Below, in pieces: positions 16,869 through 63,502 of a stretch of DNA of 64,000 nucleotides. Each line of letters starts with the position of its first letter. Within the stretch, counting starts at the first letter, position 1. Source of the stretch: an uncultured Candidatus Saccharibacteria bacterium (GTDB lineage Bacteria > Patescibacteriota > Minisyncoccia > Minisyncoccales > GWA2-38-27); assembly GCA_964394985.1 (NCBI GenBank), contig CAYMZK010000001.1, positions 63,957-127,956 on the forward strand. Reading direction: 5' to 3'. The notes beneath the pieces are model-generated. The model saw nothing but the letters and a program-made list of their open reading frames with translations, was not told the origin of the DNA and did no database searches. The translations under genes and the position numbers were made by a program.

Positions 16869-16902
<34 letters not shown>

Positions 16903-18117: not shown

Positions 18118-18150
<33 letters not shown>

Positions 18151-19511: not shown

Positions 19512-19844
19512 AATAAGAGTCGGCGTTTTATGATGGTTAATTTACTCCCCACCATCTTAACTAGATAGTTAAAGTCGTTACGGGGTCATTTAAGACTTCC
19601 CACGGTATTACCCATTACTTTATTATACCATAAAATAATTAGGGCTTCACCGTTATAAGCCGAATTCCTACTAGAAATCACTTTCTAGACAGGCAATTTC
19701 TTACCTGGCAAGAGATTACGCTACCTTTGGACGGTTATAGTTCATATACCGTATTTCCCTATATCGCTATAAGGCTTGGACTATATCTTCACCCACTCCC
19801 GTGATGGGAGTTAGGGGCTTGACGTGTAGTCTCTGAGGATTCTT

Positions 19845-21822: not shown

Positions 21823-21862
<40 letters not shown>

Positions 21863-22602
21863 AGATATCGTAGTATTTAGCCTTGGCCGATTAGTCCGGC
21901 CTGTTTCCTACAGGGTTTTCTTTCCCCATAGTACTCAAGTAAAATAACAAGGAGCACGAATAAATTTTTAAGTACAGGACTATTACCTTCTATGGTCACC
22001 CTTTCCAGGGATGTTCCTCTAACCTATTCGCCTTTTTATTCTCCCTCGGCAAACATTCTATTTCCCAAAAAGAGAAATAGAATACTCCCGACGTTATTCC
22101 CTTACAACCCCACATTAAAAAATATGGTTTGGGCTTTTCCCTTTTCGCTCGCCGCTACTTGGGGAATAAAATTATTTTTCTTTTCCTCCGCTTACTGGGA
22201 TGTTTCACTTCAGCGGGTTCGCCATCCGACATACATCGGATTAATATGGGTTTACCATATTGCGTTTACGCATTCGGAAATCTCCGGGTCAAAGGTTGCT
22301 AAACACCTCACCGAAGCTTATCGCAGTCACGCCACGTCCTTCATCGCCTTGATATCCCTAGGCATCCACCATTTGCTCTTAATAATGTTGGCTAATAATT
22401 AATAATTGTAATTGCTAGACAGTATTCAATTGACAACGTTCTTACCCATTCAGGATAAATAAAAAACCGCTTGGGGAGCGATTATTCGGACATACTATAA
22501 AATTCAGACTATATCCTACTCCCTTAGTTTTTTATATTTTATTTTCTTTATCATTGCACTATCAATCTTAACAAAACCAAGAAAGAGTGTCAATAGCAAA
22601 AA

Positions 22603-41382: not shown

Positions 41383-44058
41383 CTATGTTTTACTAAAATT
41401 TTTCACCAATTCCTCAAAATTCTTCGGGGCGTATTTTTCATAGTCCTCTTGTTTGATATAAAGAGCGGTGAATTTAACTTTATTTTGTACGGAATTTATA
41501 TCATCGCACCATTGATAAAGGCGTTTTATCTTCTCTACATCGTCTAAGTCTTCTCGCCCTTTTGTTTCCACGATATAAATTTCCTTTTCGGAAACTTTTA
41601 CAAAAAAGTCGGGATAATAATCTTTGATATTTCCGTCCGCGTCTTTGTAATCAATCTTGAAATGCACCGCAAAATAATTTTTGGCGTAGGAAACTATGTC
41701 ATCGCATTCTTCAAGAAAATTGGCAAACTGAAGCTCAAAATAGCTGTCGCCAACAATTTTATTGAACACGCTCTTTTTCGGCACAATAAAACCTTGTTCC
41801 TTAATAACAAATGGCCTTGATTTGCTGATTTTTATGTAGTCTTTTATTTCCGCTTCGCCTTTATCAACAACAGTCAGATCGTTAATTTCTTTTTTGAAAG
41901 TTTCAATAATCGTTTTTGTCGCTTCAAGCTCCGACAAATTCCGCAAGATATTCAAGTCTTCTAAATCAACCTTCTTATCAAAAAGATGATTGGTTACAAA
42001 CTCTTTTACTTTTTCATACAAAATATCATGTCCACCAACTAAGCGAAGCTCTTTTCTGATTATTTGTGCAAAGTAACCAACAACACTTTGATAATTGGGC
42101 ACAAAATCACTATCAAGCTCAGTGGTATGCGTTACTTCACCAGAAGCTATGTCCCGAAAAACAATTTCCTTTTTTTCCTTTTCGCTAAATTCTTTTATTT
42201 TCAGTTTCTTATGATTAAAACTTGCGGTGTTAAGCTCTGAAATATTTTTATATTCGCGATAAATCCTAGGGGTTAAAATCGGGATTTGAATATCTAGGCT
42301 CTCAATATCTTTTTTGGTATTTTCTTTATCCACTTCAACCACCAACGGAGCTTTTGGCTCTGTTCCTTCGCCCATTTTCTTTTTCTCAAGTTCAACGCCC
42401 TCGTTCTTAATAGACTCTACAAAATCCATAAAAGCGTCCGTTCCAACCACGCTTACATATTCCGTAACATCTGAAGTTCTATACATACGCCTCAAACCTC
42501 GTCCCAAAGTCTGTTCCGGCAAGATATTGCTCTTTGACGAATAAGGACGCAAGCCGACAATCGTAGTTACATTTTTTACATCCCAACCCTCTTTAAGCAT
42601 TAAAACCGAAACAATCGCTTTGTGCGGGCTTTCCCAATTATCAATCTCATTTGAGGCTTTTCTAAGCTCTTTTAATTCTTCCTCTTTTTTACCTGTTACT
42701 GTTTCCGAAATCTCACCATTATTTTTTGTGTGAATAGTTAAAACAGCGTCTTTAAATTCTGGATAGGTATTTTGCAGATATTCATTTACGTCATCACAGT
42801 TTTTTGTGTCGTCGGTCATTACGAAAAATACCGCTTTCTTGCCGAGTTTTTTATGTTCATCATAAACTTTTTTCCATTCAAGATAACCGAGATGAATATA
42901 ATCCTTGTATTTTTCCGTGAACTTTGCGCTTTTATGTTCTTGTAATTTGGCACGACTGGCAGAATCTGGAAGCACAGGGTGTTTTACAACGTCCTGATAA
43001 ATTGCCTCAACGAGTGGATAATCAGAAATTGTTTGTACAAAAATTGATCCGTTGTTGTGTTTTGGCGTGGCAGTAACATCAATCTGTAAAGATAAAAAAT
43101 TGTCTTTCATCTTCATTCTGTTGCTAATGTCTTCAATTGACTTAAACCACGCCAAACGCTCATCGTGGATATGATGTGCTTCGTCGTTTAGTACCATAAG
43201 TTCATCAACATCCCTCACAATTTCACCAATATTAACTTTTGAGTCGCTTGTCTTGGCAACGGGCTTATCTCCCAAAAAATAATCCATTGTATTTTCATCG
43301 TCAAAACTTGGAATATTATCTTTGCTGTTATAGACGCGATGAATATTGGTCAAAAAAATGTTTCCGGTTTTGCGAACAGTATTTATGTCGTCCTGCATAT
43401 GAATAGTAATTTGGAAATCATCTTTCCAGTTTTGTCCGCCGAAACCGTTATCAGGCAAGATCGGATCATCATAAAATATTTTAAGCCCTGTAAAGTCGGT
43501 TTTGATACGATCTAACACAATAATATTTGGAGTGATCAATAAAAAGTTTCTTGCCAGTTTTGAATCTTCTTCATACATTTTATGGAAATAACTCCAAGCT
43601 ATGAGCAAGCTCATCACTTTTGTTTTTCCGCTTCCTGTCGCCATTTTAATAACCAACCTAAGCCAGTCTTCCGGAAACATACTTGAAGAAACCGCACCGG
43701 AGCTGTCATAGCGAATAAGATCATACTTATCTTTTACTCCTGCAACTTCATAGAGATAAATGACTGTTTCAATCGCTTCTCTTTGCGCGAAGTAGTATTG
43801 AAAATTAACCATTCCGTCCGGTGTTTCCGTTGGGTGTTCAGTTTGAAACCACCATTGCAATAAAGCACGAGAAGTATCACTTACGCCTTCATAATTATTA
43901 TCACGCCATTTTTTTATTTCTTGCCGTAGCGTATGCACAAGAGGCGGAAGCAGTTTTTCATACCCCTTTTCCCGCAATGCTTCATCAGCCGGAAACCAAC
44001 GGATTTTTGGGTCAAGTATTGCATGCGGTGATTTTGGAAAATTTTTATGTAGTGCCAT
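41383..44058 (-). CDS. type III restriction enzyme Res subunit (SF2 helicase-nuclease)
   Basis: Walker A MATGSGKTKV and DEAH box LNDEAHHIHD; 891 aa. Confidence 0.8.
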   Translation of the reverse strand: MALHKNFPKSPHAILDPKIRWFPADEALREKGYEKLLPPLVHTLRQEIKKWRDNNYEGVSDTSRALLQWWFQTEHPTETPDGMVNFQYYFAQREAIETVIYLYEVAGVKDKYDLIRYDSSGAVSSSMFPEDWLRLVIKMATGSGKTKVMSLLIAWSYFHKMYEEDSKLARNFLLITPNIIVLDRIKTDFTGLKIFYDDPILPDNGFGGQNWKDDFQITIHMQDDINTVRKTGNIFLTNIHRVYNSKDNIPSFDDENTMDYFLGDKPVAKTSDSKVNIGEIVRDVDELMVLNDEAHHIHDERLAWFKSIEDISNRMKMKDNFLSLQIDVTATPKHNNGSIFVQTISDYPLVEAIYQDVVKHPVLPDSASRAKLQEHKSAKFTEKYKDYIHLGYLEWKKVYDEHKKLGKKAVFFVMTDDTKNCDDVNEYLQNTYPEFKDAVLTIHTKNNGEISETVTGKKEEELKELRKASNEIDNWESPHKAIVSVLMLKEGWDVKNVTTIVGLRPYSSKSNILPEQTLGRGLRRMYRTSDVTEYVSVVGTDAFMDFVESIKNEGVELEKKKMGEGTEPKAPLVVEVDKENTKKDIESLDIQIPILTPRIYREYKNISELNTASFNHKKLKIKEFSEKEKKEIVFRDIASGEVTHTTELDSDFVPNYQSVVGYFAQIIRKELRLVGGHDILYEKVKEFVTNHLFDKKVDLEDLNILRNLSELEATKTIIETFKKEINDLTVVDKGEAEIKDYIKISKSRPFVIKEQGFIVPKKSVFNKIVGDSYFELQFANFLEECDDIVSYAKNYFAVHFKIDYKDADGNIKDYYPDFFVKVSEKEIYIVETKGREDLDDVEKIKRLYQWCDDINSVQNKVKFTALYIKQEDYEKYAPKNFEELVKNFSKT

Positions 44059-44059
44059 A

Positions 44060-44248
44060 TTATTTATTGTTAAGCAATTCTAATATCTGATCTTGTTGCT
44101 TGATAATTAATTCCTGATTCTGCTTGTTTTGATCAAGTAGCTCCTGGTTTGTTTTTTGTATCATCTCAATCGATTTAGTTTTTTGAGAATATTCTTTATA
44201 TATCGCAGAATTTATATGAAAAGAATCAATGATTAAAGTAGCTACCAT
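44060..44248 (-). CDS. small hypothetical membrane protein
   Basis: 62 aa with one TM helix; sits between mod and res. Confidence 0.3.
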   Translation of the reverse strand: MVATLIIDSFHINSAIYKEYSQKTKSIEMIQKTNQELLDQNKQNQELIIKQQDQILELLNNK

Positions 44249-44383
44249 TACTACTAAAATTACAATAACACTAAGTAAAATAAAATTTACATCTTTAAAT
44301 CTAGAGTCTGTCTCTTTTTTAGTTCGGGTGCGGTAACGCCTCCGCTCTCAGGTATTTCAATTTGTGGTCTCTCTTTTTCCATA

Positions 44384-44596
44384 TCAATATATTCCAGTTA
44401 TGACATAGATATCATTTTCCACTCTTACCTCTAAATCTCTACCAATTAACACGGATGAATTTATGCCACCAAAGGAAACATTATTAAATCTAGCGCCGGG
44501 CCCAAATTGAACACCGCCAATTCTTATGGTTTTTTCTTTAGACGAAATACTACCATCCGAATGTACATTAAAGATTTGATGAAAATTTATACGCAT
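44384..44596 (-). CDS. small hypothetical protein
   Basis: 70 aa ORF between mod and res. Confidence 0.3.
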   Translation of the reverse strand: MRINFHQIFNVHSDGSISSKEKTIRIGGVQFGPGARFNNVSFGGINSSVLIGRDLEVRVENDIYVITGIY

Positions 44597-44599
44597 ATT

Positions 44600-46750
44600 T
44601 TAAATATTAACTTCAATTACTTTCATTGTATCATTTCCAAAAATGTCCACGACTTTAACGGCAATTTTACGCCGTCCTTTCTCGCATTCGCGGGAAACGC
44701 TTTTCAGTTCAATGGAGCGGTCTTTTTTCGTTCGGAAAGACTGCCACTCATTCTCAAAAATATAATTTCCCGTCCACGCTTCCTCAATTTCTCCGTTTTC
44801 TTTTTTTACGCGGACAAGCTCTTTTTTACTTTCAAAATCAAAATCAACCGCCCAATAGTCAATCCAATCCGTCCATTTTTTAGTCAAAACCTCTCGCTTT
44901 ACAATTCCGTCTTTGTCTTTGGAAATTTTAATGATATTGCCTTGTTCAACTAAAACTTTATCAGAGCCTTTTTTGAGACTGGCAATAACATTGTCAACAA
45001 TATCCTGATTATAATAAACGGAAAAATCAGTCAGCTCTATTGCCACTGTTCCGGGTGTTCGCTTTCCGGCAGATTTGATATGCGGTTTAACTTCTATATA
45101 GCTCACATCATGAAATTGAATTTGATTTTTCTCAATCGCTCGCTTATCAAAAACTTCTCGTGGAATATGCTTAAGGGCTAAATCAATTCCTTTTGCTTTG
45201 GCTTCTTCCTGGATTTTCGGAAACAACCCCATTTCATATTCAAAAGAAAGAATATCAACTTTGGTGATCTGTTTTTCAATACACTCTTTGATTACTTCCT
45301 CTACAAAAAGCCGTGAAGCGGGTAAGTTTATTGGTCCAATAGCCACCAATCGCCCCGCTTTTTTAGCGGCAAAAGTTTTGAAATTATTTGTGCTTTCCGC
45401 TTTATACGCTTTGACAATCAGCTTTACAAAATCAGTTTCTTTTTTAGCAAGCTGTTTTTGCTTTTGTTCTTCTCGTAAGTCAGGATTGACACCAATATAA
45501 TGTTGGCGTTCGTATTTACCAAGGTTCAGTATTTCAAAGGCTCGGAAATCTGTTCCCGTTTTCTTCATTTCACGCTGGACGCTGATCATTCTTTTTCGCG
45601 TGGTGTGAATAGAAAATTTACCAAGATCAGAACCAATCCATTTTCTGCCTAGTTTTTCCGCAACAGCAAGTGTCGTTCCTGAACCGCAAAAAAAATCAGC
45701 AACAAGATCGCCCTCATTGGAAGAAGCTTTTATTATGCGTTCAAGGAGTTTTTCTGGCTTTTGGGTTGGATAATTAAGTATTTCTGGAGAATTAACAATC
45801 GTCTGAAAATTTGCTATATCATTCCACACGTCAGAAACGGGCACGCCTTTTGACTCATCCAAATAAACCCTTCTTGTTTTTGTTATGGGTTTATATCGCC
45901 TTCCGTCTTCATCAACTTTTGTAAACCTCTTTAATTGTGCCTCCGAATAGTCTTCAAATGGCTTGTTAAAAATTATATCTTCTGATGATTTAGAGTAGTA
46001 AAGAATATTTTCATGTCCTCTTACATAATTTTGCACCATACCTTTATATCCAGACGCAGCAGACATTGTCCAAACAATATTTCTTCTGAAATTATCTTTT
46101 CCAAAAACCTCATCCAAAACCAATCTCATATATCCACTAACGCGCCAATCACAATGCACATAAATACTGCCGTCATCGGCAAGTAAATCTTTCATCAAAC
46201 TTAGTCGTTCATAAATCATGGCGATAAAACTATCCGCACCCTTGCCCCAAGTGTCGCGATAAGCAAGCTCCTCCAATACATTCGGCTTTTTGGTTAGTTC
46301 ATCTTCGCCAATTTCCACTTTCATTGAAAAATCTGCACCCACATCAAACGGCGGATCAATATAAATAAGTTTTAGACCGCCTTCTTTTTCAATTTCCTCA
46401 CGCAATACACCGCTTTTTAAACTGGATAAAATAAGTTTGTTGTCTCCCCAAATCAGCTTGTTTGTCCAACCAGCAATTTGCCTACCTCTGTCATCAAAAT
46501 CAAAAAGCATTTGCTGGGCTTGTTTTTTGGTATCTTTTGTATTTTCCGCTCTTGGCTCATCAACCATTTCAATTGTTTGAAAGGGTAAGACAACATTAGA
46601 CACTTCAGAACTTTTCTCATTCCATACAAGCTCAACCTCTTTTTTATCCGCAAAAAGCAAAAAACGAAATTTGTCCGGAAGTGGCTTCCCGGATTCAATA
46701 TATTTGATAATATCTCGTTTCTCGTTTTCGGTTAGATTAATTTTATCCAT
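44600..46750 (-). CDS. type III R-M Mod subunit (beta-class N6-adenine or N4-cytosine DNA methyltransferase)
   Basis: Motif [12 protein letters not shown] precedes motif [25 protein letters not shown], the beta-class order. 716 aa. Confidence 0.8.
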
Positions 46751-50741: not shown

Positions 50742-50775
50742 TTTTTATCTCCTAAATCAATAGTTATTCAATTGT

Positions 50776-50827
50776 TTAAGTGCTATCAACACTATACTAA
50801 AATATTAATTTAAAGTCAAATTTTTGG
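50776..50827. repeat. copy 1 of a ~52-bp direct repeat (copy 2 at 52421-52472)
   Basis: ttaagtgctatcaacactatactaaaatattaatttaaagtcaaatttt against ttaagtactaccaatactatactaaaatattaatttaaagtcaaatttt. Confidence 0.75.
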
Positions 50828-50859: not shown

Positions 50860-51483
50860 ATGAAGGTTACCAATAAATTATTGTTCGACAAAAAGGAAAT
50901 CGGGAAAATAATTTTTGATTCGAATGATTTTTGTATTTCCAAAATAAAAAAACAGATAAACAGAAGCATATCAGAATTAAATAAATTTTATAAAATAAAA
51001 ATTCCAAAAATAAATATTGAATTAATTTATTCCAAGACCAAATTCGATGAGATAATAAAAAGAAAGTCTCCAAATTGGCTTGTGGGAATTACTATTAAGA
51101 ATAAGATATACATATTCAGCCCGCTCTGTATGGAAAAATACACCTCGCACAATAAAAAAGATTTTAACAAAAATTTAAACCATGAAATTTGTCATCTTTT
51201 TAACATGGCTATAAATAAAAAACTACCAACATGGATAGATGAGGGCTCAGCCCTATACTTATCAAAACAAAAAAAGAATCATAGTTTTAATAAATCCGAC
51301 TGGCTGTTTTTTATAAATAAATTGAATAGCAGAATGACTATAAAGACATTCACGGATCATAATGGCTATAAAATAGCATATCATATGACCGATAAAATAG
51401 TTAAAAAAAGGGGGCTAAAATATTTACTGAAATTAATAAAAGAGCCTTCTCGTCTTGGACGAGAAGGCTTGTTTGAAAGCTAG
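50860..51483 (+). CDS. hypothetical HExxH (zinc-metallopeptidase-motif) protein
   Basis: NHEICHLFNMA contains HExxH with a downstream Glu (IDEGSALY); 207 aa; very AT-rich. Confidence 0.45.
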   Translation: MKVTNKLLFDKKEIGKIIFDSNDFCISKIKKQINRSISELNKFYKIKIPKINIELIYSKTKFDEIIKRKSPNWLVGITIKNKIYIFSPLCMEKYTSHNKKDFNKNLNHEICHLFNMAINKKLPTWIDEGSALYLSKQKKNHSFNKSDWLFFINKLNSRMTIKTFTDHNGYKIAYHMTDKIVKKRGLKYLLKLIKEPSRLGREGLFES

Positions 51484-51599
51484 CTGTTGTCGCATCCGCG
51501 ACAATCACAACTAACTCCACTAGTTGAAACAGACTTGGGAACTGGTTTTGTTAAACGATTCCAGCCCTTGCGTCGTTTCAATACGACTTTTGCCTTCAT
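51480..51599 (-). CDS. 39-aa Cys-containing peptide (candidate RiPP precursor), absent from the ORF track
   Basis: Hand translation of the minus strand gives MKAKVVLKRRKGWNRLTKPVPKSVSTSGVSCDCRGCDNS. AGGAGGTG SD with a 6-nt spacer. Lies immediately downstream of the SPASM-domain ORF. Confidence 0.45.
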   Translation of the reverse strand: MKAKVVLKRRKGWNRLTKPVPKSVSTSGVSCDCRGCDNS

Positions 51600-51616
51600 T
51601 GATATCACCTCCTTTC

Positions 51617-52438
51617 TTATTGTATAAAGGTTGCAGGGTCAAAATGTGTCCACAATAAAGGGCAACCACCTATACAGGTTCCCCAATATTTGCATTTCAT
51701 ACATTTCTCAACCGGATAGCGCCAAAGATCTTTTCTAAATTCAAATGGAACGCTATCAGGGTTATTCCATTCCTTAAGAAAATCATTTTTTAGAAAGAAA
51801 TTTCCATTTCTTCCTCTAACATTATTAATTAATGGAGCATCGGAAAAGTGAGTGCATGGGAGAATAGACCCGTTTGTGTCAAAAACCGCACCTTCTCCTT
51901 CGTACATATGGCATCCCACAGATATCCATTTCAAAGCAATCATTTCATTCAAAACATCTTTATCTATAAGACATATAGGAAATGTTGCGTTTAGATGAAA
52001 GGATAAATTTGCGACTCTAGCCTTACGAAATAAAGAGGTGACTGTCTCGCCCAATTCTTTCGGAGATAAGCACTGGTCAGCAAAAACTCCTTTCTCGGAA
52101 ACTACTGGTATAGCACAGTTAAAAACACTTTTTTCAACTCCTAGTTTCTGAGTTAATCTTACAATATCTAACAAATGATGATAGTTATTCTTGGTTATTG
52201 TCGTTAAAGAGCTGACAGACCCAACAACAGAACAGTTTTTGATTCCTGCCAACGTTTCTGCGAAACTACCATAGCAACAAGTCGCCATGTCATGCTCTTC
52301 GGAGCTGGCTGATATCAAGGAAATAGTCAACTTATTCAACCCGCACCGGAAAATGTCTCGAGCAAAAACCGGATTGGAAAATTTTCTTCCGTTACTCACA
52401 ATTCGTTGTCGGTTATTCAATTGGTTAAGTACTACCAA
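51617..52438 (-). pseudogene. radical-SAM/SPASM protein fragment (SPASM half only; no CxxxCxxC cluster)
   Basis: C-terminus CMKCKYWGTCIGGCP is a textbook SPASM CxxCx5CxGGC motif. The ORF begins with TTG directly after an upstream terminator and the 52-bp repeat, and has no radical-SAM Cys triad. Confidence 0.55.
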
Positions 52439-52513
52439 TACTATACTAAAATATTAATTTAAAGTCAAATTTTACTAAAATAAAAGGCGGTGAAGATTGT
52501 TTTCTTTTGGAGA

Positions 52514-53687: not shown

Positions 53688-53868
53688 TTAAAACTGAGAA
53701 ATCTCAGCACTGTCTGCACTATAGCAATAATTATCTCAAAAGTCAAATTTCTGTACTAGTCCATATGATATGATACACCAAAAGACCCTTGAAAAACATA
53801 AAGACCGACGCATCGAAGACCATCTTCGACACATAGTTCAGTTAAATGTATGAAGGTTCAACCTTCAT
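53688..53868. repeat. copy 2 of the ~180-bp intergenic repeat
   Basis: Identical to 33863-34043. Confidence 0.8.
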
Positions 53869-54566
53869 ATATTTGAGTTTAGATAAATAACGTCTTTTCT
53901 TTCCACTACAACTTCCCATCCTTTTTCTTTTGCATGATCATATAGCTTCTGATTTGGATTAAAGCAAATTGGCCTTTCTACTATTTCTAAAAAGGGAATG
54001 TCACTTTCGGTATCACCCATGCCAATTGATTCCTTCAAGCTAAGTTTTTCTTTTTCAATCGCCCTTCTTAAAACCTCCGCTTTATCTTCAATAAAATCAA
54101 GATAAAGAACTTCTCCAGTAAGCTTTTTTTGATTGTCTATTTCAAGTATTCGGCCATATGATTTATCAAAGCCCATTTTCTCACAAAATTCTTCAACTAA
54201 TATTTTGGGAGAATGAGAAATAGCTAAAAGATAATAGTTTTTCTTTTTTAATTCCTCTATAAAATCTCTGGAGTATTTATAAACCCGGTTTCCGTGAAAA
54301 GAAATAACCTTTTTAGATATTTCTAAAAAATCATCATATTTAACTCCCTTAATGTTTTCTATAAAAGCAGTAATAACCGCATGAATATAATTATCATAAG
54401 AACCGCTTCTGTTGAGCCAGTTATTATATGCTTCTTGGTATGACTCTTTTGTTTCTTTAGAAAAAATCCCCTCTTGAATAAGAGCATCTGTTAACTCTAT
54501 TAATAGACTAGATCTAAAGATAGTCCCGTCAATATCAAAAATAGCCACCTTCTTCTTTTCTTCCAT
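53865..54566 (-). CDS. HAD-superfamily hydrolase
   Basis: Motif I VAIFDIDGTIF; 233 aa. Confidence 0.7.
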   Translation of the reverse strand: MEEKKKVAIFDIDGTIFRSSLLIELTDALIQEGIFSKETKESYQEAYNNWLNRSGSYDNYIHAVITAFIENIKGVKYDDFLEISKKVISFHGNRVYKYSRDFIEELKKKNYYLLAISHSPKILVEEFCEKMGFDKSYGRILEIDNQKKLTGEVLYLDFIEDKAEVLRRAIEKEKLSLKESIGMGDTESDIPFLEIVERPICFNPNQKLYDHAKEKGWEVVVERKDVIYLNSNI

Positions 54567-54890
54567 AAATTTAATTATTTATTTTTATCCTCTAGAAATT
54601 TTTCAAAAGACCGGTCGTAGGTCTTTTCTGCTTCTTTTGAAAAATAGCAACCCGGCAACTCCCCTCTTTCCCGATGATATTTCACACACTCACAACAAAG
54701 CCCTTTCCTCTCACAAGGATAACTACAATTACAATTATTTAAATTTTCCTCTCTTCTGCACTCCATAATTTTTTATTATTTGAGTAAAGCCGGACTTCAC
54801 CCAAGACTTACTTTCTTTAAGATTAACACTTTAGATGCCAAAAAACAACTTACCTACTTCTTTTTATTTTTTTACTCCTGACCCCTTTTT
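54560..54890. repeat. ~330-bp exact duplication unit (copy 2 at 60487-60825)
   Basis: Identical sequence including the Cys-rich ORF and the upstream leader with the ctcctgacccc motif. Confidence 0.8.
54575..54766 (-). CDS. 63-aa Cys-rich small protein (8 Cys); identical duplicate at 60502-60693
   Basis: [42 protein letters not shown]... Gene and ~130 bp of upstream sequence are duplicated exactly. Confidence 0.55.
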
Positions 54891-55134
54891 ACTTTTTTAT
54901 ATAATTTCTGTTTAAATAGACATTTGCGACTTCTGGTAACTATTTTGACTGCTTGGATCTTCCGGTAATTTTAAATATTTTGACGCCCAATTTTTCATGA
55001 AAAAGTATATCTTCTGGTCTTATTATGCTTGCTTTTAAAATTTCTCTTGGTTACATTAATTTTTTATTTTTATTAAAAAAACCTGAAGCAATAGGAGTTT
55101 GCTCATCAGTAAAATTATTACCGAAAAAATAAAA

Positions 55135-55165
55135 GGGCCGTAGTTTTTTTACTACGGCCTTTGAT
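55135..55165 (-). terminator. intrinsic terminator
   Basis: ggccgtagt-ttttttt-actacggcc with a U-run on the minus strand. Confidence 0.55.
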
Positions 55166-55182
55166 CGAACACTAGATACAAT

Positions 55183-56349
55183 TTAGAAAAATCCGGTTAT
55201 TTCACGATATTGATGCTGCTCTAAAATGTGAAGGATACGTTCGTTGTCAAAAATAACGACAACAATCATAGAACGAAACCGATTAGGATGTTTAAAGTTT
55301 CGCAAACGACTTATGTCCAAATATCGTCTACCCAAACCATCTTCACAAAAAATACTATAAGCGGGAGAAGTAGACATAAGCATGCCATTTTTTGTCCACG
55401 GACGCTCTAATGATATTTCAAAAACTCGTAAAGCTGTGTCGCCATTACTATTCTTGGCATACTTCACAAAAGGAAGCCAGTGCATCCATTCCCCTATTTT
55501 TTCTCCGTTAGAAAGGATAAAACCAACGGGACCATAACCTTTTTGTAGTTCCGAAAGATAAAGCACTCTTGGAGGGCCAGGAGGTTCTGAATGATGAAGA
55601 AAGTTACTTGGATTATCTATAAAAATCATACTATCTTCAAAATTTTCCTTATAACCGCTCTTGCCCAAAAAAGTTACAAAGTGCCTACATTCGTCAAACG
55701 AATAGCCAAGCTCCTTAGAGCTAATAAAGCACAAGGAGTTTCCTTTCTTAATGATTTCGGACAAAGTAACTTCTTCGCTTTTAACGGAGGCAAATTCCTC
55801 AAACTGATACCAGTATATTCCGGTATCCGAAGCTACAAAAATAACTGCCGTTATGTAGTTAAAAATAACGGAAAAAACCACTTCTCCTTTTCTAACACAG
55901 GTGATAGAGCCAGTAGCTCCCGTTATAGAAACAGGTGATTCAAACATCTCCTCCCAGAGGGTTTCAGCATCGCAATCCTTCAGAAGATCCCCTACTTTTG
56001 CCAACTGATTTCCATCGGAGACCTTTTCAAGAAATAATTTAAGTTGCTTAGATCTGTCAGTAGGATCAGAAAAAAACATTAATGGTTGTCTGGTAGGATC
56101 TGCCCCTGTTGGCCAACGTTTGTGAGCGAACTCATCCAGTTCTTCGGTTATAAGAATGCTGTGACGATCAAAATCTCGAAGACGTTCAGAAATAACAAGC
56201 TCTGGTATAGCATCAAGCCCAAGAGTATCTCCTTTTCCGTAATTAACCTTACGTAAAGTTTCAGCACAATCAACATCCATTAATTCTTGCCAAGCCCTTA
56301 AAAGAGCTTTAATGCAAACATCACAATACTGTCTTTCTATTCCTTGCAT
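55183..56349 (-). CDS. hypothetical protein (388 aa), GC-richer than surroundings
   Basis: Long ORF with SD. A weak IMPase-like signal (ITEEL...FSDPTDRS) is not enough for a call. Confidence 0.45.
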   Translation of the reverse strand: MQGIERQYCDVCIKALLRAWQELMDVDCAETLRKVNYGKGDTLGLDAIPELVISERLRDFDRHSILITEELDEFAHKRWPTGADPTRQPLMFFSDPTDRSKQLKLFLEKVSDGNQLAKVGDLLKDCDAETLWEEMFESPVSITGATGSITCVRKGEVVFSVIFNYITAVIFVASDTGIYWYQFEEFASVKSEEVTLSEIIKKGNSLCFISSKELGYSFDECRHFVTFLGKSGYKENFEDSMIFIDNPSNFLHHSEPPGPPRVLYLSELQKGYGPVGFILSNGEKIGEWMHWLPFVKYAKNSNGDTALRVFEISLERPWTKNGMLMSTSPAYSIFCEDGLGRRYLDISRLRNFKHPNRFRSMIVVVIFDNERILHILEQHQYREITGFF

Positions 56350-56520
56350 GATATATTCTCCTTTCTATTTTTTATTGTAAAGGTTCTTTATTCTACCAAC
56401 TTAAGATTAGCTCAATAAAAAGAAAATTTCAAGTTTAATTTGAGAAAATAGCATCAACTCTGATTTTCCTAATATAAAAAAGCTCCTGACCCCTTTTTCT
56501 GCAAAAATTAATCTATTAAA

Positions 56521-56560
56521 AAGGCCGTAGCGGAATAATTTCCGAAACGGCCATAGCGAA
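56521..56560 (-). terminator. intrinsic terminator
   Basis: ggccgtagcggaaat-a-atttccgaaacggcc. Confidence 0.5.
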
Positions 56561-56573
56561 TTAATTCGCATTA

Positions 56574-56774
56574 TCATTTATTGCCGATAATGCGACCATC
56601 GACATCCCGGATAAAAACTGGATTTCGAGATGAATCGAACACAGCGTGTCCGCCACGATCACCCGGCAAACCCGTTCTCACAATCTTGAGATCTGTCTTT
56701 CCATCAGAGCGATTGCGATGGATCAGTGTCTCGCCACTGCGAGAATTGTGAAAAACAACATCACCTTTACTCAT
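56574..56774 (-). CDS. small hypothetical protein (66 aa), GC-rich
   Basis: AAGGAG SD; no Cys. Pattern KGDVVFHNSRSGETLIH resembles small Tudor/SH3-like DUF proteins (low-confidence guess). Confidence 0.4.
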   Translation of the reverse strand: MSKGDVVFHNSRSGETLIHRNRSDGKTDLKIVRTGLPGDRGGHAVFDSSRNPVFIRDVDGRIIGNK

Positions 56775-57053
56775 TTTTCTACTCCTTAATTAGTAATGAC
56801 ATCTTTCAACCGAAAACAATTTTCGGTTTTTGTGCTATTTTTAGTATAGCAAATAACAATGCTTTTTTCAACATTTCATATTAACTCATAAAATTCAGAG
56901 TTGACACCATTTTTTGAGCCCGGTCCTCTTCATTATACCTCACCTCAATATCAATATAATTTAAACAAAAAATGTGCTTAACCCGGTTAAGCACATTTTG
57001 TATAAAAGACGGATCCCTAGCTTAAAAAAGCTCCTGGCCCCTTTTACTCCCTT

Positions 57054-57725
57054 TTACGCTCCCCTTTTACACTTCTTTATAATTGTATTTAGAGAATTAA
57101 CTAAACTTATTATTTTAAAATCACTTATTATTTTTTTTAAATCATAGCCCCCTAACCACATCTTTTCAATTATTTCTCTAATTTCTTGATGAACTTGATA
57201 CCCCCTATCTTCAATATTTTTGAATTCTGAATTATTAATTACTGTAAGGACTTCTTTTAATTCCTGAATTCCATTATTTGTATAGCCTAATTTTTTGCAA
57301 AAATCCATCCATTTGTCTAAAAAGGCAATATGAGAAAATTCATGTATAATTGTGCTAGGGATGGGGTTAGAAAAATTATAAGAAGAAGCTTTTACCGAAA
57401 GCAAAATGCATTTCTTCTCAAGATATATGGCCGATGTTTTGGTAGTAACGATATAACACTTAAGGATTTCTGGGAGATTGTATTCATAAATTTTAAAAAT
57501 AGTTTTCTTAAGATCCTCATCTCTATTCCATAAAGTATAATATTCTAGAATTTTTTCTTGGGCTATTTTTTTATCTTCTTCTGTAATAGAAATCTTATCT
57601 GGAAATTTCTTCCCAAACATTTCTTTATATTTTAGAGTTGATTCCCAAGCCCTCTTATTTATTTGTTCATCATATTTAAAATCCATAAAATTAGAAGGGT
57701 GGACCATCAATGCTTGACAGTCCAC
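57054..57725 (-). CDS. hypothetical HExxH (zinc-metallopeptidase-motif) protein
   Basis: TIIHEFSHIAF contains HExxH; 223 aa. Sits directly downstream of the candidate precursor peptide and the radical-SAM maturase. Confidence 0.5.
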   Translation of the reverse strand: MDCQALMVHPSNFMDFKYDEQINKRAWESTLKYKEMFGKKFPDKISITEEDKKIAQEKILEYYTLWNRDEDLKKTIFKIYEYNLPEILKCYIVTTKTSAIYLEKKCILLSVKASSYNFSNPIPSTIIHEFSHIAFLDKWMDFCKKLGYTNNGIQELKEVLTVINNSEFKNIEDRGYQVHQEIREIIEKMWLGGYDLKKIISDFKIISLVNSLNTIIKKCKRGA

Positions 57726-57742
57726 CCCTTGCTAAGAAGGGC

Positions 57743-57868
57743 AAGGCATAAGTTAAACGCAACCGTCACAGTTGCATTCGTAACATGGGGAAGGACAACC
57801 ATCATTGGATGTCCTTATTCCTTGCGGAATTTCGCTGAGCACCTCAGTAATCTTCAGCATTTTAATTA
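57743..57868 (-). CDS. 41-aa Cys-rich peptide, candidate RiPP precursor, absent from the ORF track
   Basis: Hand translation of the minus strand gives MEELIKMLKITEVLSEIPQGIRTSNDGCPSPCYECNCDGCV. GGAG lies 8 nt upstream of the ATG. It is 22 nt downstream of the rSAM/SPASM stop. Local GC is above background. Confidence 0.5.
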
Positions 57869-57889
57869 ATTCTTCCATGATACTTTCTC

Positions 57890-58936
57890 CTACTCAATAA
57901 ATGGTTTTACAATGTCTTCTGGGTTATCGATCGCCCATCTTAAAGGACATCCTCCGCCACAATCTTGATACATTATACAATCTCTACACTTGAACGAAGG
58001 ATATGATCCTACCTGGTTGTAATAACCCAACACAGTTTCTGAATTTATCCACTGCCTTAATGAATCAGCGTTAACAAAATCGGTTCCGTAATGCCCTATT
58101 GGATAACCAAATAGAGCGTTACACATTAAAATACTTCCACGCTCGTCCCATATCAAGCCCTTACCCTTCCTAAGCTGACATACGCTAATGATTTGATCTT
58201 TTTTCTTAAGCTGTTTGATAAATTCACGTTCGAAGAGACAAAAAGGAATCATCATTTCAAACACTAACTTGCCTTTTGTAATTTTATCCAACTCAGGATA
58301 ATCCCTCATAATATTGGATGCCAACTCACGAGAGGGAACCATGTAAGTTGAGTCTGGCTTATTGTCCGTAAAAGTCGTGGAACAAAAATTAATCTGAACT
58401 CCTTTCGCTCCACAATCCATTGCAAATTGAACCATCTCCGGAAGACTGCCACAGTAGAAAGAATTATAGGTAATTGCGATTTGGCAATAAAACGCAACAC
58501 AAGCTCTTTCTACCCCTTTTTTCATTTTGTCAAAATCAGCTGAGCCAGAAACTTCTTTAAATTGTTGTGGACCCCAAGCTTTGAGGGAAAGCCCCATTTT
58601 GTCATTTGGATTTCTTTGATATTCTTCCCAAAATTCATCATCTCCAAAACGAAGAGCGTTTGTTACTAAAATACTCTTTATCCCTATCTCTTTACAGAAA
58701 CGATTATATTTAGGAAGAGCATCCCACAAAGTAGGCTCTCCCCCAATAGGAAGCATCCCTTCAACCCCTATTTCTTTTGACAAGAGCGTTAAATCTCTTG
58801 CCAACTGAAAAGACATTTCGTTTGCCTGATAATCTGTCCCTTCAGCATAGCACCAACGACATCTCAGATTACATCTCCTGTTAACTGTAAGCCAAGACAT
58901 TTTTGGTTCAATTCTATTCTTCTTTCCTTCAAACAT
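57890..58936 (-). CDS. radical SAM enzyme with C-terminal SPASM domain (RiPP-maturase-like)
   Basis: CNLRCRWCY is the CxxxCxxC radical-SAM cluster. C-terminal CRDCIMYQDCGGGCP is the SPASM CxxCx5CxGGC motif. 348 aa. Confidence 0.8.
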   Translation of the reverse strand: MFEGKKNRIEPKMSWLTVNRRCNLRCRWCYAEGTDYQANEMSFQLARDLTLLSKEIGVEGMLPIGGEPTLWDALPKYNRFCKEIGIKSILVTNALRFGDDEFWEEYQRNPNDKMGLSLKAWGPQQFKEVSGSADFDKMKKGVERACVAFYCQIAITYNSFYCGSLPEMVQFAMDCGAKGVQINFCSTTFTDNKPDSTYMVPSRELASNIMRDYPELDKITKGKLVFEMMIPFCLFEREFIKQLKKKDQIISVCQLRKGKGLIWDERGSILMCNALFGYPIGHYGTDFVNADSLRQWINSETVLGYYNQVGSYPSFKCRDCIMYQDCGGGCPLRWAIDNPEDIVKPFIE

Positions 58937-59092
58937 TCTACACCCTACCTTTCTTATTTTAAAGAGCTAAGGAGCTAAAAATATTCTTTAGCTATTACCT
59001 TAATTTAACCACATTTTAAGAGCAATTGCAAACCATCCGGACTGGGTTCAAGGAATTAACGCACAATCAGACTAGTGGTATAGTAAGAGTAT

Positions 59093-59401
59093 ATGAAAAA
59101 GAAATACCACCGTCTAACTCTAGCTGATCGAGTTCCTAGGGGAGAGCTTAAGAAGGAATTAATGAGAGGATTAAGAAGAGAAAGAAGATTAAGACAGAGT
59201 AGAAAATATGCTCATTATCGCAAACAGAGAATTAAAGACATAGTAAGCATCTCTGAAAGGCCTAAAGAAGTAAAAGATAGAATTGTTCCTGGACACTGGG
59301 AAGGAGACCTAATAGTGGGAAAACAACACAGTAGCGCACTAGGAACATTGGTAGAAAGGACCACTAGATTAACTCTTTCTACGAGAAGTTTTATCAATTA
59401 A
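59093..59401 (+). pseudogene. IS30-family transposase fragment
   Basis: [12 protein letters not shown], the IS30 signature. Only 102 aa, with no DDE domain. Confidence 0.6.
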
Positions 59402-59514
59402 TTACTGGTCGGAAATGTGCACTAGAAACTTAAGTTCAGCTCCTGACCCTTTTTTCCCAATTAATAATATTTTATTTTTCTAAGAAAAAAAACTCCTGAC
59501 CCCTTTTTTCAAAT

Positions 59515-60489
59515 TTAAATATTTGGGTTTAATATTTTTTCGGCTGGAGAAATTCCTCCCAAAACCTTGTGAGGGAAATAATTCCAGACATCGTTTATTA
59601 AGTATAACATTCTTTCAAATTCTTCCGGACTTTGATTTTGATCAAGCTTTTTTACTATTTCATCTAATTCTTTATGGCTTTTTTCATTATAAATAATTTC
59701 TTTAATCTCATCTATAGTTATATTCGCTTTATATTTTTTGATTAAAGCCAGAAGGTTTTTTTCTATTTCTTTTCTTTTTTTAGCGATACTTTCTTTTGTC
59801 TCTTTTTTCACCGATTTTGCCATATCTGGATATACAAACATTTTGTCATCAAGACCGCTCATTTCAAGCTCATCCATCAACTCATTAGCAATATCGCCCT
59901 TAATACCCTCTTCTCTCCCAAAATTTTTTTCTAAGGCAGCAAGTCGCATCTGCTTTCTGGTTTCTGGGTTATTCTTTTCTTTTTTTATTTTTTCTTGCTC
60001 TTTTTTACTTAAATTTAAAAAGGATTTTTTTGTTTCTTGAGCAACCTCATAATTTTTTTTAACAAACTCACTTCCTAAACTTAGGCTTTTCGCTCGATTT
60101 ATCCACGCAAGACCTTCTTCAAAATCAAATTCACTAATATAACTACTGCCTAAATCAAGATATGCCTTGTAATCCATTAAATTTAAATTTACAGCATTTC
60201 TTAAATCCTTTCTTCCTTCCTCTGTCTTTCCTAGCATAATTTTTGTCCAGCCCAAACTTCTAATAACTTCCGGGTGATTAGGATCTAATCTATCTGCCTC
60301 TAAAAAAGATTTTTCTGCCAAAGAGAATAACCCTGTTTTTAATCTGGCGACTCCTAAAAGATAATACCCATAGGCATTATTTGGAAATTTTTTAATAATT
60401 TTTTTCAAAGCCAAAATTGCTTCAATAAATTTATTTTCATTCATTAAAGAATCTACTTCTTCAATATATTTTTCAAAATCTTTTTTCAT
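59515..60489 (-). CDS. TPR repeat protein
   Basis: Multiple TPR-like units (AYGYYLLGVARLKTGLFSLAEKSFLEADRLDPNH...). Confidence 0.6.
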   Translation of the reverse strand: MKKDFEKYIEEVDSLMNENKFIEAILALKKIIKKFPNNAYGYYLLGVARLKTGLFSLAEKSFLEADRLDPNHPEVIRSLGWTKIMLGKTEEGRKDLRNAVNLNLMDYKAYLDLGSSYISEFDFEEGLAWINRAKSLSLGSEFVKKNYEVAQETKKSFLNLSKKEQEKIKKEKNNPETRKQMRLAALEKNFGREEGIKGDIANELMDELEMSGLDDKMFVYPDMAKSVKKETKESIAKKRKEIEKNLLALIKKYKANITIDEIKEIIYNEKSHKELDEIVKKLDQNQSPEEFERMLYLINDVWNYFPHKVLGGISPAEKILNPNI

Positions 60490-60501
60490 AAGTTTACTTA
60501 T

Positions 60502-60693
60502 TTATTTATTTTTATCCTCTAGAAATTTTTCAAAAGACCGGTCGTAGGTCTTTTCTGCTTCTTTTGAAAAATAGCAACCCGGCAACTCCCCTCTTTCCCG
60601 ATGATATTTCACACACTCACAACAAAGCCCTTTCCTCTCACAAGGATAACTACAATTACAATTATTTAAATTTTCCTCTCTTCTGCACTCCAT
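60502..60693 (-). CDS. 63-aa Cys-rich small protein (duplicate)
   Basis: Identical to 54575-54766. Confidence 0.55.
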
Positions 60694-60836
60694 AATTTTT
60701 TATTATTTGAGTAAAGCCGGACTTCACCCAAGACTTACTTTCTTTAAGATTAACACTTTAGATGCCAAAAAACAACTTACCTACTTCTTTTTATTTTTTT
60801 ACTCCTGACCCCTTTTTTATTTGTGTAGTGCCATGG

Positions 60837-61973
60837 TTATTTAATAAAAATATTAATGTAATTCTTGTATGCATAACTTCTGTCGTATGTTCCTTTCTCG
60901 TCTTGTGCATACAAAATTCCTATCTTTATAAACCTATCTATAACTTTTTGAGCCCCTGCACGAGTAAAACCTGTCCAATCCATGACTTTTTTTGTATTCA
61001 CAATTGGTGAACCAAAAAGTTTTTGCAATACCAAAACGCCACTCTCAGATTCTCTTTTTGCAAGAGTTTGTATTTTAAGTATATCGATATCTCTTAGTTT
61101 CCTAATCTGACTTGTTATTTCTATTGATTCTTCTGCCGTTTCAATAACACCATCAAGGAAGAAATCTGCCCAGCTCTCAACATTACCATCATGATAATCA
61201 TCAAGTTTTTGATAATACACCTTTTGGTGTTTTTTAAAATAAGAAGACAGAAACAAGACAGGGTTCTCCAATAGATTCCTATGACATAATAAAAGTGTTA
61301 TCAGCAAACGCCCGGTTCTTCCGTTACCATCCAAAAATGGATGTATGGTTTCAAATTGTGCGTGCATAATTCCAATGTGTAATAACGGGAGTACTTTTTC
61401 CTCTTCATGAAGAAACCTTTCCAAATCATTTAGCGTGCGTTGCATTTCATCAACAGGAGACGGAACAAAATGTGCGTTATCCGGTCTTGTGCCCCCGATC
61501 CAATTTTGAGTTTTTCTAAATTCACCTGGATCAGAAAAATGTGTAGCTCGCGCCCCGGTCATCAGCTCTTTATGTATTTCTCTTATTAATCGCAGAGACA
61601 GCGGTAAATCCTTAAGACGACTTAAACCGTAATTCATTGCTTTTATATAATACAAAATGTCATCAGCATCTGTATCGTCTACACTAATACCCGCGTCCTT
61701 TTCAAGAGCATCAATGATGGTCGCCTTTGTCCCTTCTATCTGCGCTGAAGAAGTCGCGTCTTTCGCCACGAACATTTTCAAAAAGAAATCAACATCAGGA
61801 AGAGCACTTTCTGTAGTAGTTCCATCAAGCTTACCTACCAAACGGTCTGCTTTAGCGATTTTTAGTAAAATGTTTTGAGGTATTTCAAAAAGTCCTTTTG
61901 GAGGGAAAGGATTAGGAATAAGAGCTGAATACCCTTCTTTTTGCTTTATTTTTTTACCTATTTCTGTATTCAT
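60837..61973 (-). CDS. Fic/DOC family protein
   Basis: Fic motif HPFLDGNGRTGRLL; 378 aa. Confidence 0.8.
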   Translation of the reverse strand: MNTEIGKKIKQKEGYSALIPNPFPPKGLFEIPQNILLKIAKADRLVGKLDGTTTESALPDVDFFLKMFVAKDATSSAQIEGTKATIIDALEKDAGISVDDTDADDILYYIKAMNYGLSRLKDLPLSLRLIREIHKELMTGARATHFSDPGEFRKTQNWIGGTRPDNAHFVPSPVDEMQRTLNDLERFLHEEEKVLPLLHIGIMHAQFETIHPFLDGNGRTGRLLITLLLCHRNLLENPVLFLSSYFKKHQKVYYQKLDDYHDGNVESWADFFLDGVIETAEESIEITSQIRKLRDIDILKIQTLAKRESESGVLVLQKLFGSPIVNTKKVMDWTGFTRAGAQKVIDRFIKIGILYAQDEKGTYDRSYAYKNYINIFIK

Positions 61974-62044
61974 ATACTTAGTATCTATTGTCTTTATAGA
62001 TATATACTATCTTACATTATAGTATATATTTCGTCAATACATAC

Positions 62045-62093
62045 ATACTATCTCTCAAAACTTCATTCTCAAAAATATAATTTCCCGTCCACG
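62045..62093 (-). other. 43-bp remnant identical to part of the type III mod gene (44748-44795)
   Basis: cattctcaaaaatataatttcccgtccacgcttcctcaatttc is identical in both places. Translated on the minus strand it encodes [15 protein letters not shown], as in Mod. Confidence 0.55.
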
Positions 62094-62104
62094 CTTCCTC
62101 AATT

Positions 62105-63502
62105 TCATAATTTTATTTTTAGCTCGGATAATTTGCTCACGATCCATTTTTTCGCTTCTTGTTCGTCTTTTTCAATCGCCATTTCCACGCCTCGCTTGGC
62201 AATTTCAAGTAAAAATTTTGATAATTTTCTATCATTAAACGATTTTTCAATTAACTTTTTGATTTCTTTTTGTTTATCTACTTTTAAAATAGGAATTAAG
62301 GTTGCTTTTACTTGATCTGGTCTCCAATGGTTGATAATTGATCCGCCAGCGTCACGCTCAATTTGTTTCTGCACGATTACGGAATTTAAAACAAGTGTTA
62401 AGTACTCTGGTATTATCTGTTTGTTATCCATTTTTAATCTCAAAATACCACCAGATACAATCATTTTTTGCGGTTCTTCGTTCAAAAAATAGGCCGTGCC
62501 GGGCGTTGCGTCTTTTGAAAGCAGAATTTCACCTTTCTTTGGCTGATGTGTTTTTAATGTTTCGTATATTTCTTTGGATAAAAATTGCTGATTATTGGTA
62601 GAAAGCTCAAATTTTGAAAGATTGCTCACGCGGACAAAGGGCACACCGTTTTCTTGATATGCTTCGCTTCCCGGTTCAACACTCTTTTTCACTTTTACCA
62701 AATTTCCCAGCTCATCAAATCCGCTCTTGTATTTTTTCACCGCTTTAACGATTTCGTCATATTTCGGCTGAAAATATTCTGCGTCAAAACGATCTGATTC
62801 TTTGGTGTTGGAAAAGTTTTTGACAAAAGCGAGTTCGTGTTTTGGCTTCCAGCTTAAAAGTCTGAGTTCGGAAAGGAGTAATTGCTCGGCTTGGGAATAG
62901 AGATAGTCTGATTCTAAAACTAACTTGCAACATTGAGAAACTATTTTGTTTAATATTTCTCTTAACGCCAAAATATTTTTAGGTATCGGTAAATTTAATA
63001 AATCGTGTTCTTGAAATCTTGGGTGCTGAGTTCCGCCCTGTCCCCAAAATAAAATCTTTTGAACAAACTTGGTTAATAAAAAGGGAGTCAAGAAAGATAT
63101 ATTACCTTTATCCTTACCTCTCAATACAAAAAATTCAGTTGTTAAATATGCTTTATTAAGAAAGGTTGGTATGTATGCGATTTGTTTTAAATACGGTCTA
63201 AGTCTTGAGATTATGACATCTCCGCTTTTCGCCCTTCTTTTTAGGCTAATTCTTTCCTCTGTTTGTGCAAGATTCTTTGTAAGAATATGTGAAAATGCTG
63301 CTCCTGTATCATAAATTTCAACATTAGAATCTTTTGGAATTTCGTTTTTTTTAATACTTAAGATAATATCACTCAAAGAAATATTTGAGTTATCTTTTAA
63401 AATTCTGAGAGTATCCAGCTTTTCCGGATGATAATATTCCGAATCAATTCTAAAATCAGAATTTTCTTTTACCGTTTTATAATTTACAACTGAATATTGC
63501 AT
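62105..63502 (-). CDS. restriction-modification specificity subunit (HsdS-like, two target-recognition domains)
   Basis: Two internally similar halves (DFRIDSEYYHPEKLD against DRFDAEYFQPKYDE) and a conserved central spacer (PIPKNILALREILNKIV); 465 aa. Confidence 0.55.
   Translation of the reverse strand: MQYSVVNYKTVKENSDFRIDSEYYHPEKLDTLRILKDNSNISLSDIILSIKKNEIPKDSNVEIYDTGAAFSHILTKNLAQTEERISLKRRAKSGDVIISRLRPYLKQIAYIPTFLNKAYLTTEFFVLRGKDKGNISFLTPFLLTKFVQKILFWGQGGTQHPRFQEHDLLNLPIPKNILALREILNKIVSQCCKLVLESDYLYSQAEQLLLSELRLLSWKPKHELAFVKNFSNTKESDRFDAEYFQPKYDEIVKAVKKYKSGFDELGNLVKVKKSVEPGSEAYQENGVPFVRVSNLSKFELSTNNQQFLSKEIYETLKTHQPKKGEILLSKDATPGTAYFLNEEPQKMIVSGGILRLKMDNKQIIPEYLTLVLNSVIVQKQIERDAGGSIINHWRPDQVKATLIPILKVDKQKEIKKLIEKSFNDRKLSKFLLEIAKRGVEMAIEKDEQEAKKWIVSKLSELKIKL

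Follow-up and report, generated by a model that had tools for sequence, protein, structure and literature searches.

Precursor peptides of the SCIFF, sactipeptide and ranthipeptide type are small, Cys-rich and widely conserved. SCIFF-type precursors adjoin their maturase in essentially every genome and are built from a leader and a C-terminal core. A small protein which at first sight resembles them is encoded twice in the DNA analyzed here, a window of 64,000 nucleotides (nt) from an uncultured Candidatus Saccharibacteria bacterium (contig CAYMZK010000001.1, positions 63,957 to 127,956). It consists of 63 amino acids (aa), is rich in Cys and is encoded near a radical S-adenosylmethionine (rSAM)/SPASM gene; its gene is part of an exactly duplicated unit of 316 bp, which also contains the 5' leader. 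In contrast to the SCIFF-type precursors, the family to which it belongs, DUF6485, shows no linkage to a maturase, is conserved from end to end, is predicted to be folded and does not have the leader/core layout. The explanation which we favor, with a probability of about 0.7, is a recent duplication of the 316-bp segment within the chromosome, in which each copy has its own promoter and heads an operon, and in which the folded, probably metal-binding DUF6485 protein has no role in the formation of ribosomally synthesized and post-translationally modified peptides (RiPPs). The location of the copies on either side of an rSAM/SPASM module would then be a by-product of local rearrangement and not the sign of a functional RiPP relationship.

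The duplicated block covers positions 54575-54890 and 60502-60817. It is a direct repeat with 100% identity at an offset of 5927, and an exact repeat of 316 nt is not due to chance. The low end of the block is the stop codon of the minus-strand gene and the high end is located 124 nt 5' of the ATG, two bases past a short boundary motif, AAAGGGGTCAGGAG. Outside the block the similarity drops at once to the background level on both sides, and no diverged homology was found beyond. An earlier note on this DNA had described 54560-54890 and 60487-60825 as identical. The exact duplication was confirmed, but at three of the four ends these limits are 8-15 nt too wide; since the two intervals are of unequal length, they cannot both be fully identical. 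The product of 63 aa with eight Cys was found as described, with the translation as quoted. The leader of about 130 bp indeed lies within the repeat but measures 124 nt, and unrelated genes do follow 8-12 nt downstream, namely a HAD-IB family hydrolase gene in one case and a TPR-repeat protein gene in the other (Table 1). The HAD-IB assignment is based on a Pfam HAD match and on TIGR01490 (108 bits, cut-off 98.3).

With a promoter and a gene placed directly before a second, unrelated gene, the unit is similar to promoter-carrying cassettes and segmental duplications. It differs from integron-type cassettes in that no attC-like hairpin is present, as the regions around the boundary motif fold no better than shuffled sequences (0 to -4 kcal/mol). 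Among the open reading frames (ORFs) scanned in 49.5-64 kb no integrase or recombinase was detected, only a transposase fragment of 102 aa belonging to the IS30 family. A 24-nt probe from the leader had no match in metagenome contigs of the Joint Genome Institute (JGI), the whole unit had none in phage records, and homologous genes at other loci share the ORF only. The portability that had been suggested is not supported by these results; one local duplication is seen.

Independent support for the repeat was found in Logan contigs from the run SRR7048227. Three contigs are 100% identical to the window, L087 to 56996..54861, L088 to 60531..56970, running through the TPR gene, and L108 to 62092..60788. 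Each of them ends exactly 30 nt within the repeat unit. The Logan assembly graph is built with k=31, and such ends are the behavior to expect at a true branching repeat. In the raw reads, three of the four junctions between unit and flank are thus represented by these contigs, with two distinct upstream contexts (the side of the Fic gene and the side of a gene for a protein of 388 aa) and at least the TPR downstream context. A simple duplication by the assembler, which had been considered before, is therefore excluded.

The same junctions bear on a rival explanation in which the genome holds a single copy of the unit. In this case the chromosome would read Fic-unit-HAD and a separate circle of 5,927 bp would exist beside it, or the population would be mixed, with excision and integration of the Campbell type. 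The two-in, two-out node at the unit in the Logan graph fits the integrated and the episomal form equally well, and a direct repeat with 100% identity is as expected after homologous integration of a circle sharing the unit. However, no replication, integrase or partition gene was recognized in the segment between the copies, which shows only the IS30 fragment, and its composition does not break with that of the surroundings. Furthermore, a public contig of 143 kb with these genes and the window itself both place the segment in the chromosome. The segment also carries the 388-aa gene, for which 661 homologues of about 387 aa were found (56-75% identity among the matches listed). All named homologues are from Patescibacteria, where the gene occurs in varied chromosomal contexts; its neighbors differ in the relatives L089 and L093. 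This conserved gene argues for a chromosomal location of the segment, and we consider the single-copy explanation unlikely.

For the question of which copy is the original one, the closest relative in GTDB (locus L007) is informative. Its DUF6485 protein is 82% identical to that of the window, and the genes for DUF6485, HAD, a histidine kinase and a response regulator are located in a row. On the minus strand of the window, copy A and the HAD gene are followed by about 4.3 kb of extra genes, coding for an SDR protein, a truncated rSAM/SPASM module with flanking repeats of 62 nt and a hexapeptide-repeat protein, and then by the histidine kinase and the response regulator (48% and 42% identical to those of L007). 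Because L007 keeps this order, we infer that copy A is ancestral and that copy B, located before the TPR gene, is derived from it.

The lack of diverged homology outside the block speaks for the new copying of a discrete segment rather than for gene conversion, by which two old paralogues would lately have been homogenized. Conversion tracts normally lie inside a wider region of partial similarity. Another Patescibacteria contig (L086) does contain two DUF6485 paralogues (4624-4815 and 9894-10085), which are 5.3 kb apart and about 92% identical at the nucleotide level; 7 of the codon differences between them are synonymous and 7 are non-synonymous. Two paralogues may thus have existed before the genome of the window arose, and gene conversion could have used the motif at the 5' end as a common anchor. 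However, what the L086 paralogues have in common is limited to the ORF, give or take about 20 nt, and does not include a leader, and in L007 no second copy is present in the 5 kb to each side of the gene. Late homogenization is thus not a likely origin of the identical copies. Compared with other DUF6485 loci, it is unusual that the gene and its leader are present twice without any difference in a stretch of 6 kb, as two copies within 5 kb were found at only one other of 83 homologous loci (L086 and its duplicates).

Both leaders contain the element TTGTTT-N17-TGTTAATCT, which looks like a promoter of the extended -10 type and closely resembles another intergenic site at 25144. The predicted 5' untranslated region (UTR) of about 47 nt contains a small hairpin (about 54804..54780, -11.2 kcal/mol, z = -2.3). 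A scan of 50-64 kb with Rfam gave nothing credible, hence no riboswitch is present in the leader. The terminator scan revealed no terminator-like site between DUF6485 and HAD or TPR; after the HAD gene, a terminator-like hairpin was found at 53834..53808. Because each copy has its own promoter-like element and is separated from the next gene by a gap of 8 or 12 nt without a terminator-like site, each copy is most likely the first gene of a short operon (DUF6485-HAD or DUF6485-TPR), whose genes would be co-transcribed. In L007, the region 5193-5400 comprises DUF6485, its own terminator-like hairpin, a copy of the boundary motif (AAGAGGTCAGGAG, one mismatch), two GGGGTATAAT boxes and HAD. There, DUF6485 and HAD look separately transcribed, compared with a distance of only 8 nt in the window. 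Inside the ORF of the window, a perfect 8-bp inverted repeat (AAAAGACC ... GGTCTTTT) is located at 54605-54627 and 60532-60554, over the conserved EKTYDRSF codons. It was scored as terminator-like on the plus strand only and is probably incidental.

According to the favored explanation, a segment consisting of the A-rich stretch from AAAGGGGTCAGGAG, the extended -10 promoter, the 5' UTR and the complete DUF6485 gene would have been copied recently within the chromosome. The second copy would have been placed 12 nt before the TPR gene, 5.9 kb from the ancestral copy, and each copy would drive its downstream gene from its own promoter. The rearrangement would have taken place in a plastic region with the IS30 fragment, restriction-modification genes and SoFic, to which the 23S rRNA introns with their LAGLIDADG genes also belong. 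Such a duplication is ordinary, and it would show a promoter together with the first gene being copied to head another operon in a small genome of the Candidate Phyla Radiation (CPR).

The boundary motif, also written AAAAGGGGTCAGGAGCTTTTTT, has six matches in the window compared to 0.01 expected by chance, and all six are located on the minus strand within 54875-60815. Behind the Fic, TPR and HExxH genes it lies at a distance of 9-22 nt from the stop codon, and it is also found upstream of the DUF6485 and 388-aa genes; it is often followed by C or T and a T-run. A function as hairpin or terminator stem was rejected, as the motif does not fold, and so was a function as fixed -35 or activator site, as the TAATCT box is located at unequal distances from it (49, 68 and 73 nt). 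A version of 22 nt was detected at 13 sites in JGI metagenome contigs with a GC content of 0.27-0.66. The first degenerate position is T at all 13 sites, most of which are located just after stop codons or between convergent ORFs. A probe of viral contigs with the motif found none, and a literature search on the motif string returned unrelated primer sequences only. Beside DUF6485 itself, this motif is the part of the locus that is worth further work.

The 63-aa product matches the Pfam family DUF6485 (PF20095) at residues 7-58 with 30.1 bits, compared to a gathering score of 24 (E = 6.8e-07). The family was also matched by all 36 homologues that were aligned. In NCBI, members are annotated as "DUF6485 family protein" or "cytosolic protein". 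A sequence search revealed 208 relatives of the protein with 55-80% identity among the matches listed. They were found in Patescibacteria, in Woesearchaeota and other DPANN, in Thermoplasmatota and in Promethearchaeota (Asgard), as well as in Desulfobacteraceae, Spirochaetota, Verrucomicrobiota and Planctomycetes. When each GTDB species was represented by one genome, DUF6485 matches were obtained in at least 600 species of bacteria and archaea, and an exhaustive profile search gave 522 clusters at 50% identity. The best 150 of these 522 clusters all have a length of 50-132 aa, one of them being a tandem two-domain form. DUF6485 is a small standalone protein and not a domain of larger enzymes. 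By their organism names, the carriers point to mostly anaerobic lineages. Christensenella sp. Marseille-P2438 (LT700187.1, locus L031) and Perlabentimonas gracilis (NZ_JAANIG010000015.1, locus L083) are among the carriers in culture. The sequence thus belongs to a widely conserved small Cys-rich family, a possibility which the earlier note had raised next to that of co-occurrence with rSAM genes.

In 36 diverse members including the protein of the window, C3, C12, C14, C18, C24, C25, C27, H31 and C40 are invariant, and so are N8, G22, P38, F42, E47 and R52. The protein of the window follows the family pattern C-x8-C-x-C-x3-4-C-x5-CC-x-C-x3-H-x8-C. Its Cys are located at residues 3-40; the Cys-free C-terminal third with the E-x2-YDRSF helix is also conserved. 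The AlphaFold2 model is compact and has four helices, with a mean pLDDT of 89.3 and no segment below 50. Of the two structures proposed before, a zinc ribbon or a disordered core peptide, the disordered one is not supported by the model; the predicted fold is compact and all-helical. Foldseek found no PDB match to the model even at E <= 10 and no viral structure either. Scans with NCBIfam, PHROGs and PADLOC gave no match for the protein, and literature searches for DUF6485 or PF20095 found no papers. Like clostridial 2[4Fe-4S] ferredoxins, DUF6485 has about eight Cys in about 60 residues, but it lacks the CxxCxxCxxxCP motifs and no Fer4 match was obtained even at E <= 5. A weak resemblance to the zinc ribbon of eL37 is seen around CxxC...H...C...tY.RS, with a sub-threshold PDB profile match (E = 0.12) and weak Pfam L37e matches in 5 of the 36 members (best E = 0.018). 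The fold predicted for DUF6485 is all-helical, unlike a zinc ribbon.

Judged from this conservation, DUF6485 is probably a folded, cytosolic, small metalloprotein, which binds Zn or Fe-S by the eight Cys and one His as ligands. The protein of the window does not differ from other members (length of about 60-70 aa, Cys8/His1, C-terminal helix) and is a regular representative of a biochemically uncharacterized but catalogued family. With about 65 aa, nine invariant putative metal-ligand residues and an identity of 55-80% across bacteria and archaea, also in the reduced genomes of CPR and DPANN, DUF6485 merits biochemistry.

In addition, we analyzed the surroundings of the family. ORFs were called in the 83 homologous loci, and the immediate neighbors (75 downstream, 73 upstream) were compared with Pfam. 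No conserved partner was detected among them, and Radical_SAM is not a recurrent family. The commonest neighbor family is RidA (7 of 75 loci, mostly Elusimicrobia by record names), and the remaining neighbors are mostly housekeeping genes, like tRNA synthetases, DNA ligase, PEPCK and peptide deformylase. Among the 749 ORFs located no more than about 5 kb from the loci, 8 contain a CxxxCxxC motif, and six of these 8 are Radical_SAM. Two of the six are immediate neighbors, and Pfam revealed a SPASM domain in none of the six. As the family is ubiquitous, the neighbors vary and rSAM genes account for 6 of 749 ORFs, DUF6485 is in all probability not a RiPP precursor, and the Cys-rich ORF of 63 aa should not be annotated as one. 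The earlier note had suggested additional rSAM substrates and had itself named a ubiquitous family without rSAM linkage as the finding that would speak against them; this is what was found. The CNC, which had appeared reminiscent of rSAM-associated peptides, is part of the family-wide invariant CxC and not of a RiPP core. Of the idea of a metal-binding partner, metal binding is plausible in view of the invariant eight Cys and one His and the compact fold, but a link to rSAM was not found across the family.

It could still be assumed that, in this lineage, the rSAM/SPASM maturase works together with DUF6485, which might donate electrons as a small Fe-S protein or act as a chaperone for metals or clusters, and of which an extra copy was for this reason recruited next to the RiPP module. 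Eight of the 63 residues are Cys, and the family occurs, by organism names, mostly in anaerobes. Both Patescibacteria contigs with two copies, the window and L086, have an rSAM cluster on the same strand downstream of one copy, compared to a background of 6 among 83 loci with an rSAM gene no farther than about 5 kb away. The cluster of L086 (10551-14815) has the order rSAM-HExxH protein-small ORFs-rSAM/SPASM. However, it is not orthologous to that of the window, and the observation in two of two contigs was made post hoc. Over the whole family there is neither an rSAM enrichment nor a conserved partner, and about ten other Patescibacteria loci are without rSAM neighbors. Moreover, the operon of copy B and the rSAM gene are separated by two copies of the boundary motif and by the IS30 fragment on the opposite strand, and the arrangement of the Cys differs from that in ferredoxins, with no match to Fer4. 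We regard a partner role as very unlikely. Two further observations were made at L086: intergenic palindromes are repeated near its DUF6485 paralogues, and L002 and L003, other assemblies of this region, stop just after the second DUF6485 copy.

A broader version includes the boundary motif. The motif would be a recombination or regulatory site which delimits expression units, recombination directed by the motif would have placed a copy of the unit at the head of the TPR/rSAM region, and the rSAM/SPASM maturases of Patescibacteria would have a small Fe-S or metal partner in DUF6485, an association which L086 would share as a second lineage. This combination appears highly improbable. That the 63-aa products are extra precursor peptides of the rSAM/SPASM enzyme can be practically dismissed on computational grounds: they are Cys-rich, contain CxC and superficially resemble the tails of the peptides of 41 aa (…CYECNCDGCV) and 42 aa (…CDCRGCDNS), but they belong to a ubiquitous family whose conservation extends from end to end and which shows no link to maturases, and they are confidently predicted to adopt a compact fold with the Cys in the N-terminal two-thirds and no leader/core layout.

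Several results weigh against a recent chromosomal duplication of a promoter-carrying unit without any RiPP role. The tailored promoter pattern is only modestly enriched (12 sites compared to 5.2 expected, about twofold over shuffles), and a generic sigma-70 scan did not list the leader element. The fourth junction, from the unit to HAD, was not recovered in Logan, where neither the exact 63-aa product nor that of the HAD gene is listed in the contig index, and the same graph also fits one chromosomal copy with a 5.9-kb circle or a mixed population. The 5' end of the repeat coincides with a motif that is present six times in 6 kb, and the duplication offers no explanation for this. Conservation is the sole argument for metal binding. 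Finally, the second DUF6485 copy of L086 is located just 466 nt upstream of the rSAM cluster; we take this proximity as a post-hoc coincidence, which leaves some room for a lineage-specific rSAM link of low probability.

Table 1. Features of the duplicated unit, the boundary motif and the two RiPP-like modules (positions in the window).
Feature	Position	Strand	Remarks
DUF6485 gene, copy A	54575..54766	minus	63 aa, 8 Cys and 1 His; directly upstream of HAD
DUF6485 gene, copy B	60502..60693	minus	identical to copy A; directly upstream of TPR gene
Leader of copy A, 124 nt	54767..54890	minus	in exact-identity block; motif 54888..54875, promoter-like element 54848..54820
Leader of copy B, 124 nt	60694..60817	minus	identical to leader of copy A; motif 60815..60802, promoter-like element 60775..60747
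HAD-IB family hydrolase gene	53865..54566	minus	starts 8 nt after stop of copy A
TPR-repeat protein gene	59515..60489	minus	starts 12 nt after stop of copy B; Pfam TPR families
Boundary motif	54875-54888, 60802-60815	minus	5' limit of repeat copies A and B
Boundary motif	56483-56496	minus	134 nt upstream of 388-aa gene
Boundary motif	57031-57044	minus	C variant
Boundary motif	59440-59453 and 59493-59506	minus	double copy, next to IS30 fragment
Segment between copies, 5,611 bp	54891..60501	minus	from 60501 down: TPR, IS30 fragment, rSAM/SPASM, peptide, HExxH, 66-aa ORF and 388-aa genes
IS30 family transposase fragment, 102 aa	59093-59401	plus	NF033563, model positions 88-163 of 267; between TPR and rSAM genes
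rSAM/SPASM gene, 348 aa	57890..58936	minus	no NCBIfam maturase family above its cut-off
41-aa Cys-rich peptide ORF ending CPSPCYECNCDGCV	57753..57878	minus	in RiPP-like module
223-aa HExxH protein (HEFSH motif)	57054..57725	minus	no Pfam domain
66-aa ORF			between HExxH and 388-aa genes in the minus-strand order of the segment
388-aa conserved Patescibacteria protein	55183..56349	minus	no Pfam, PHROGs or PADLOC match
207-aa HExxH protein	50860-51483	plus	second RiPP-like module
42-aa Cys-rich peptide ORF	51480..51608		second RiPP-like module
rSAM/SPASM gene, N-terminal radical SAM core apparently missing	51617..52438		second RiPP-like module

The RiPP-like module between the two copies (57054-58936) is apparently intact. 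It had been described as flanked by the copies, and it does lie between them, but the interval also holds the 388-aa gene, the TPR gene and the IS30 fragment. The segment of 5.6 kb was also considered as a mobile island; this was rejected as the main explanation, since it shows no composition break and holds a conserved core gene. A second repeat-flanked rSAM module is located in the same region. This RiPP-like module is decayed and is bracketed by a direct repeat of 62 nt with 94% identity (50763-50824 and 52412-52473).

A neighborhood of defense genes is located at 41383-46750 and 60837-63502. It includes ResIII (891 aa), a restriction enzyme of Type III, together with its methylase (716 aa) and a Fic protein of the SoFic type (PADLOC, E = 1.7e-104). 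An ORF of 465 aa resembles a Type I specificity subunit, with no Pfam match at E <= 0.001, and Type I restriction-modification genes are probably present in the region.

Intron-rich rRNA genes are typical of CPR bacteria. The 23S rRNA gene in the window (16604-22387, minus strand region) spans 4,362 nt, compared to 2,925 nt of the model. Two ORFs for LAGLIDADG endonucleases are located inside it (19047-19511 and 19845-20360), and a third one (17112-17624) was found between the 23S and 5S genes.

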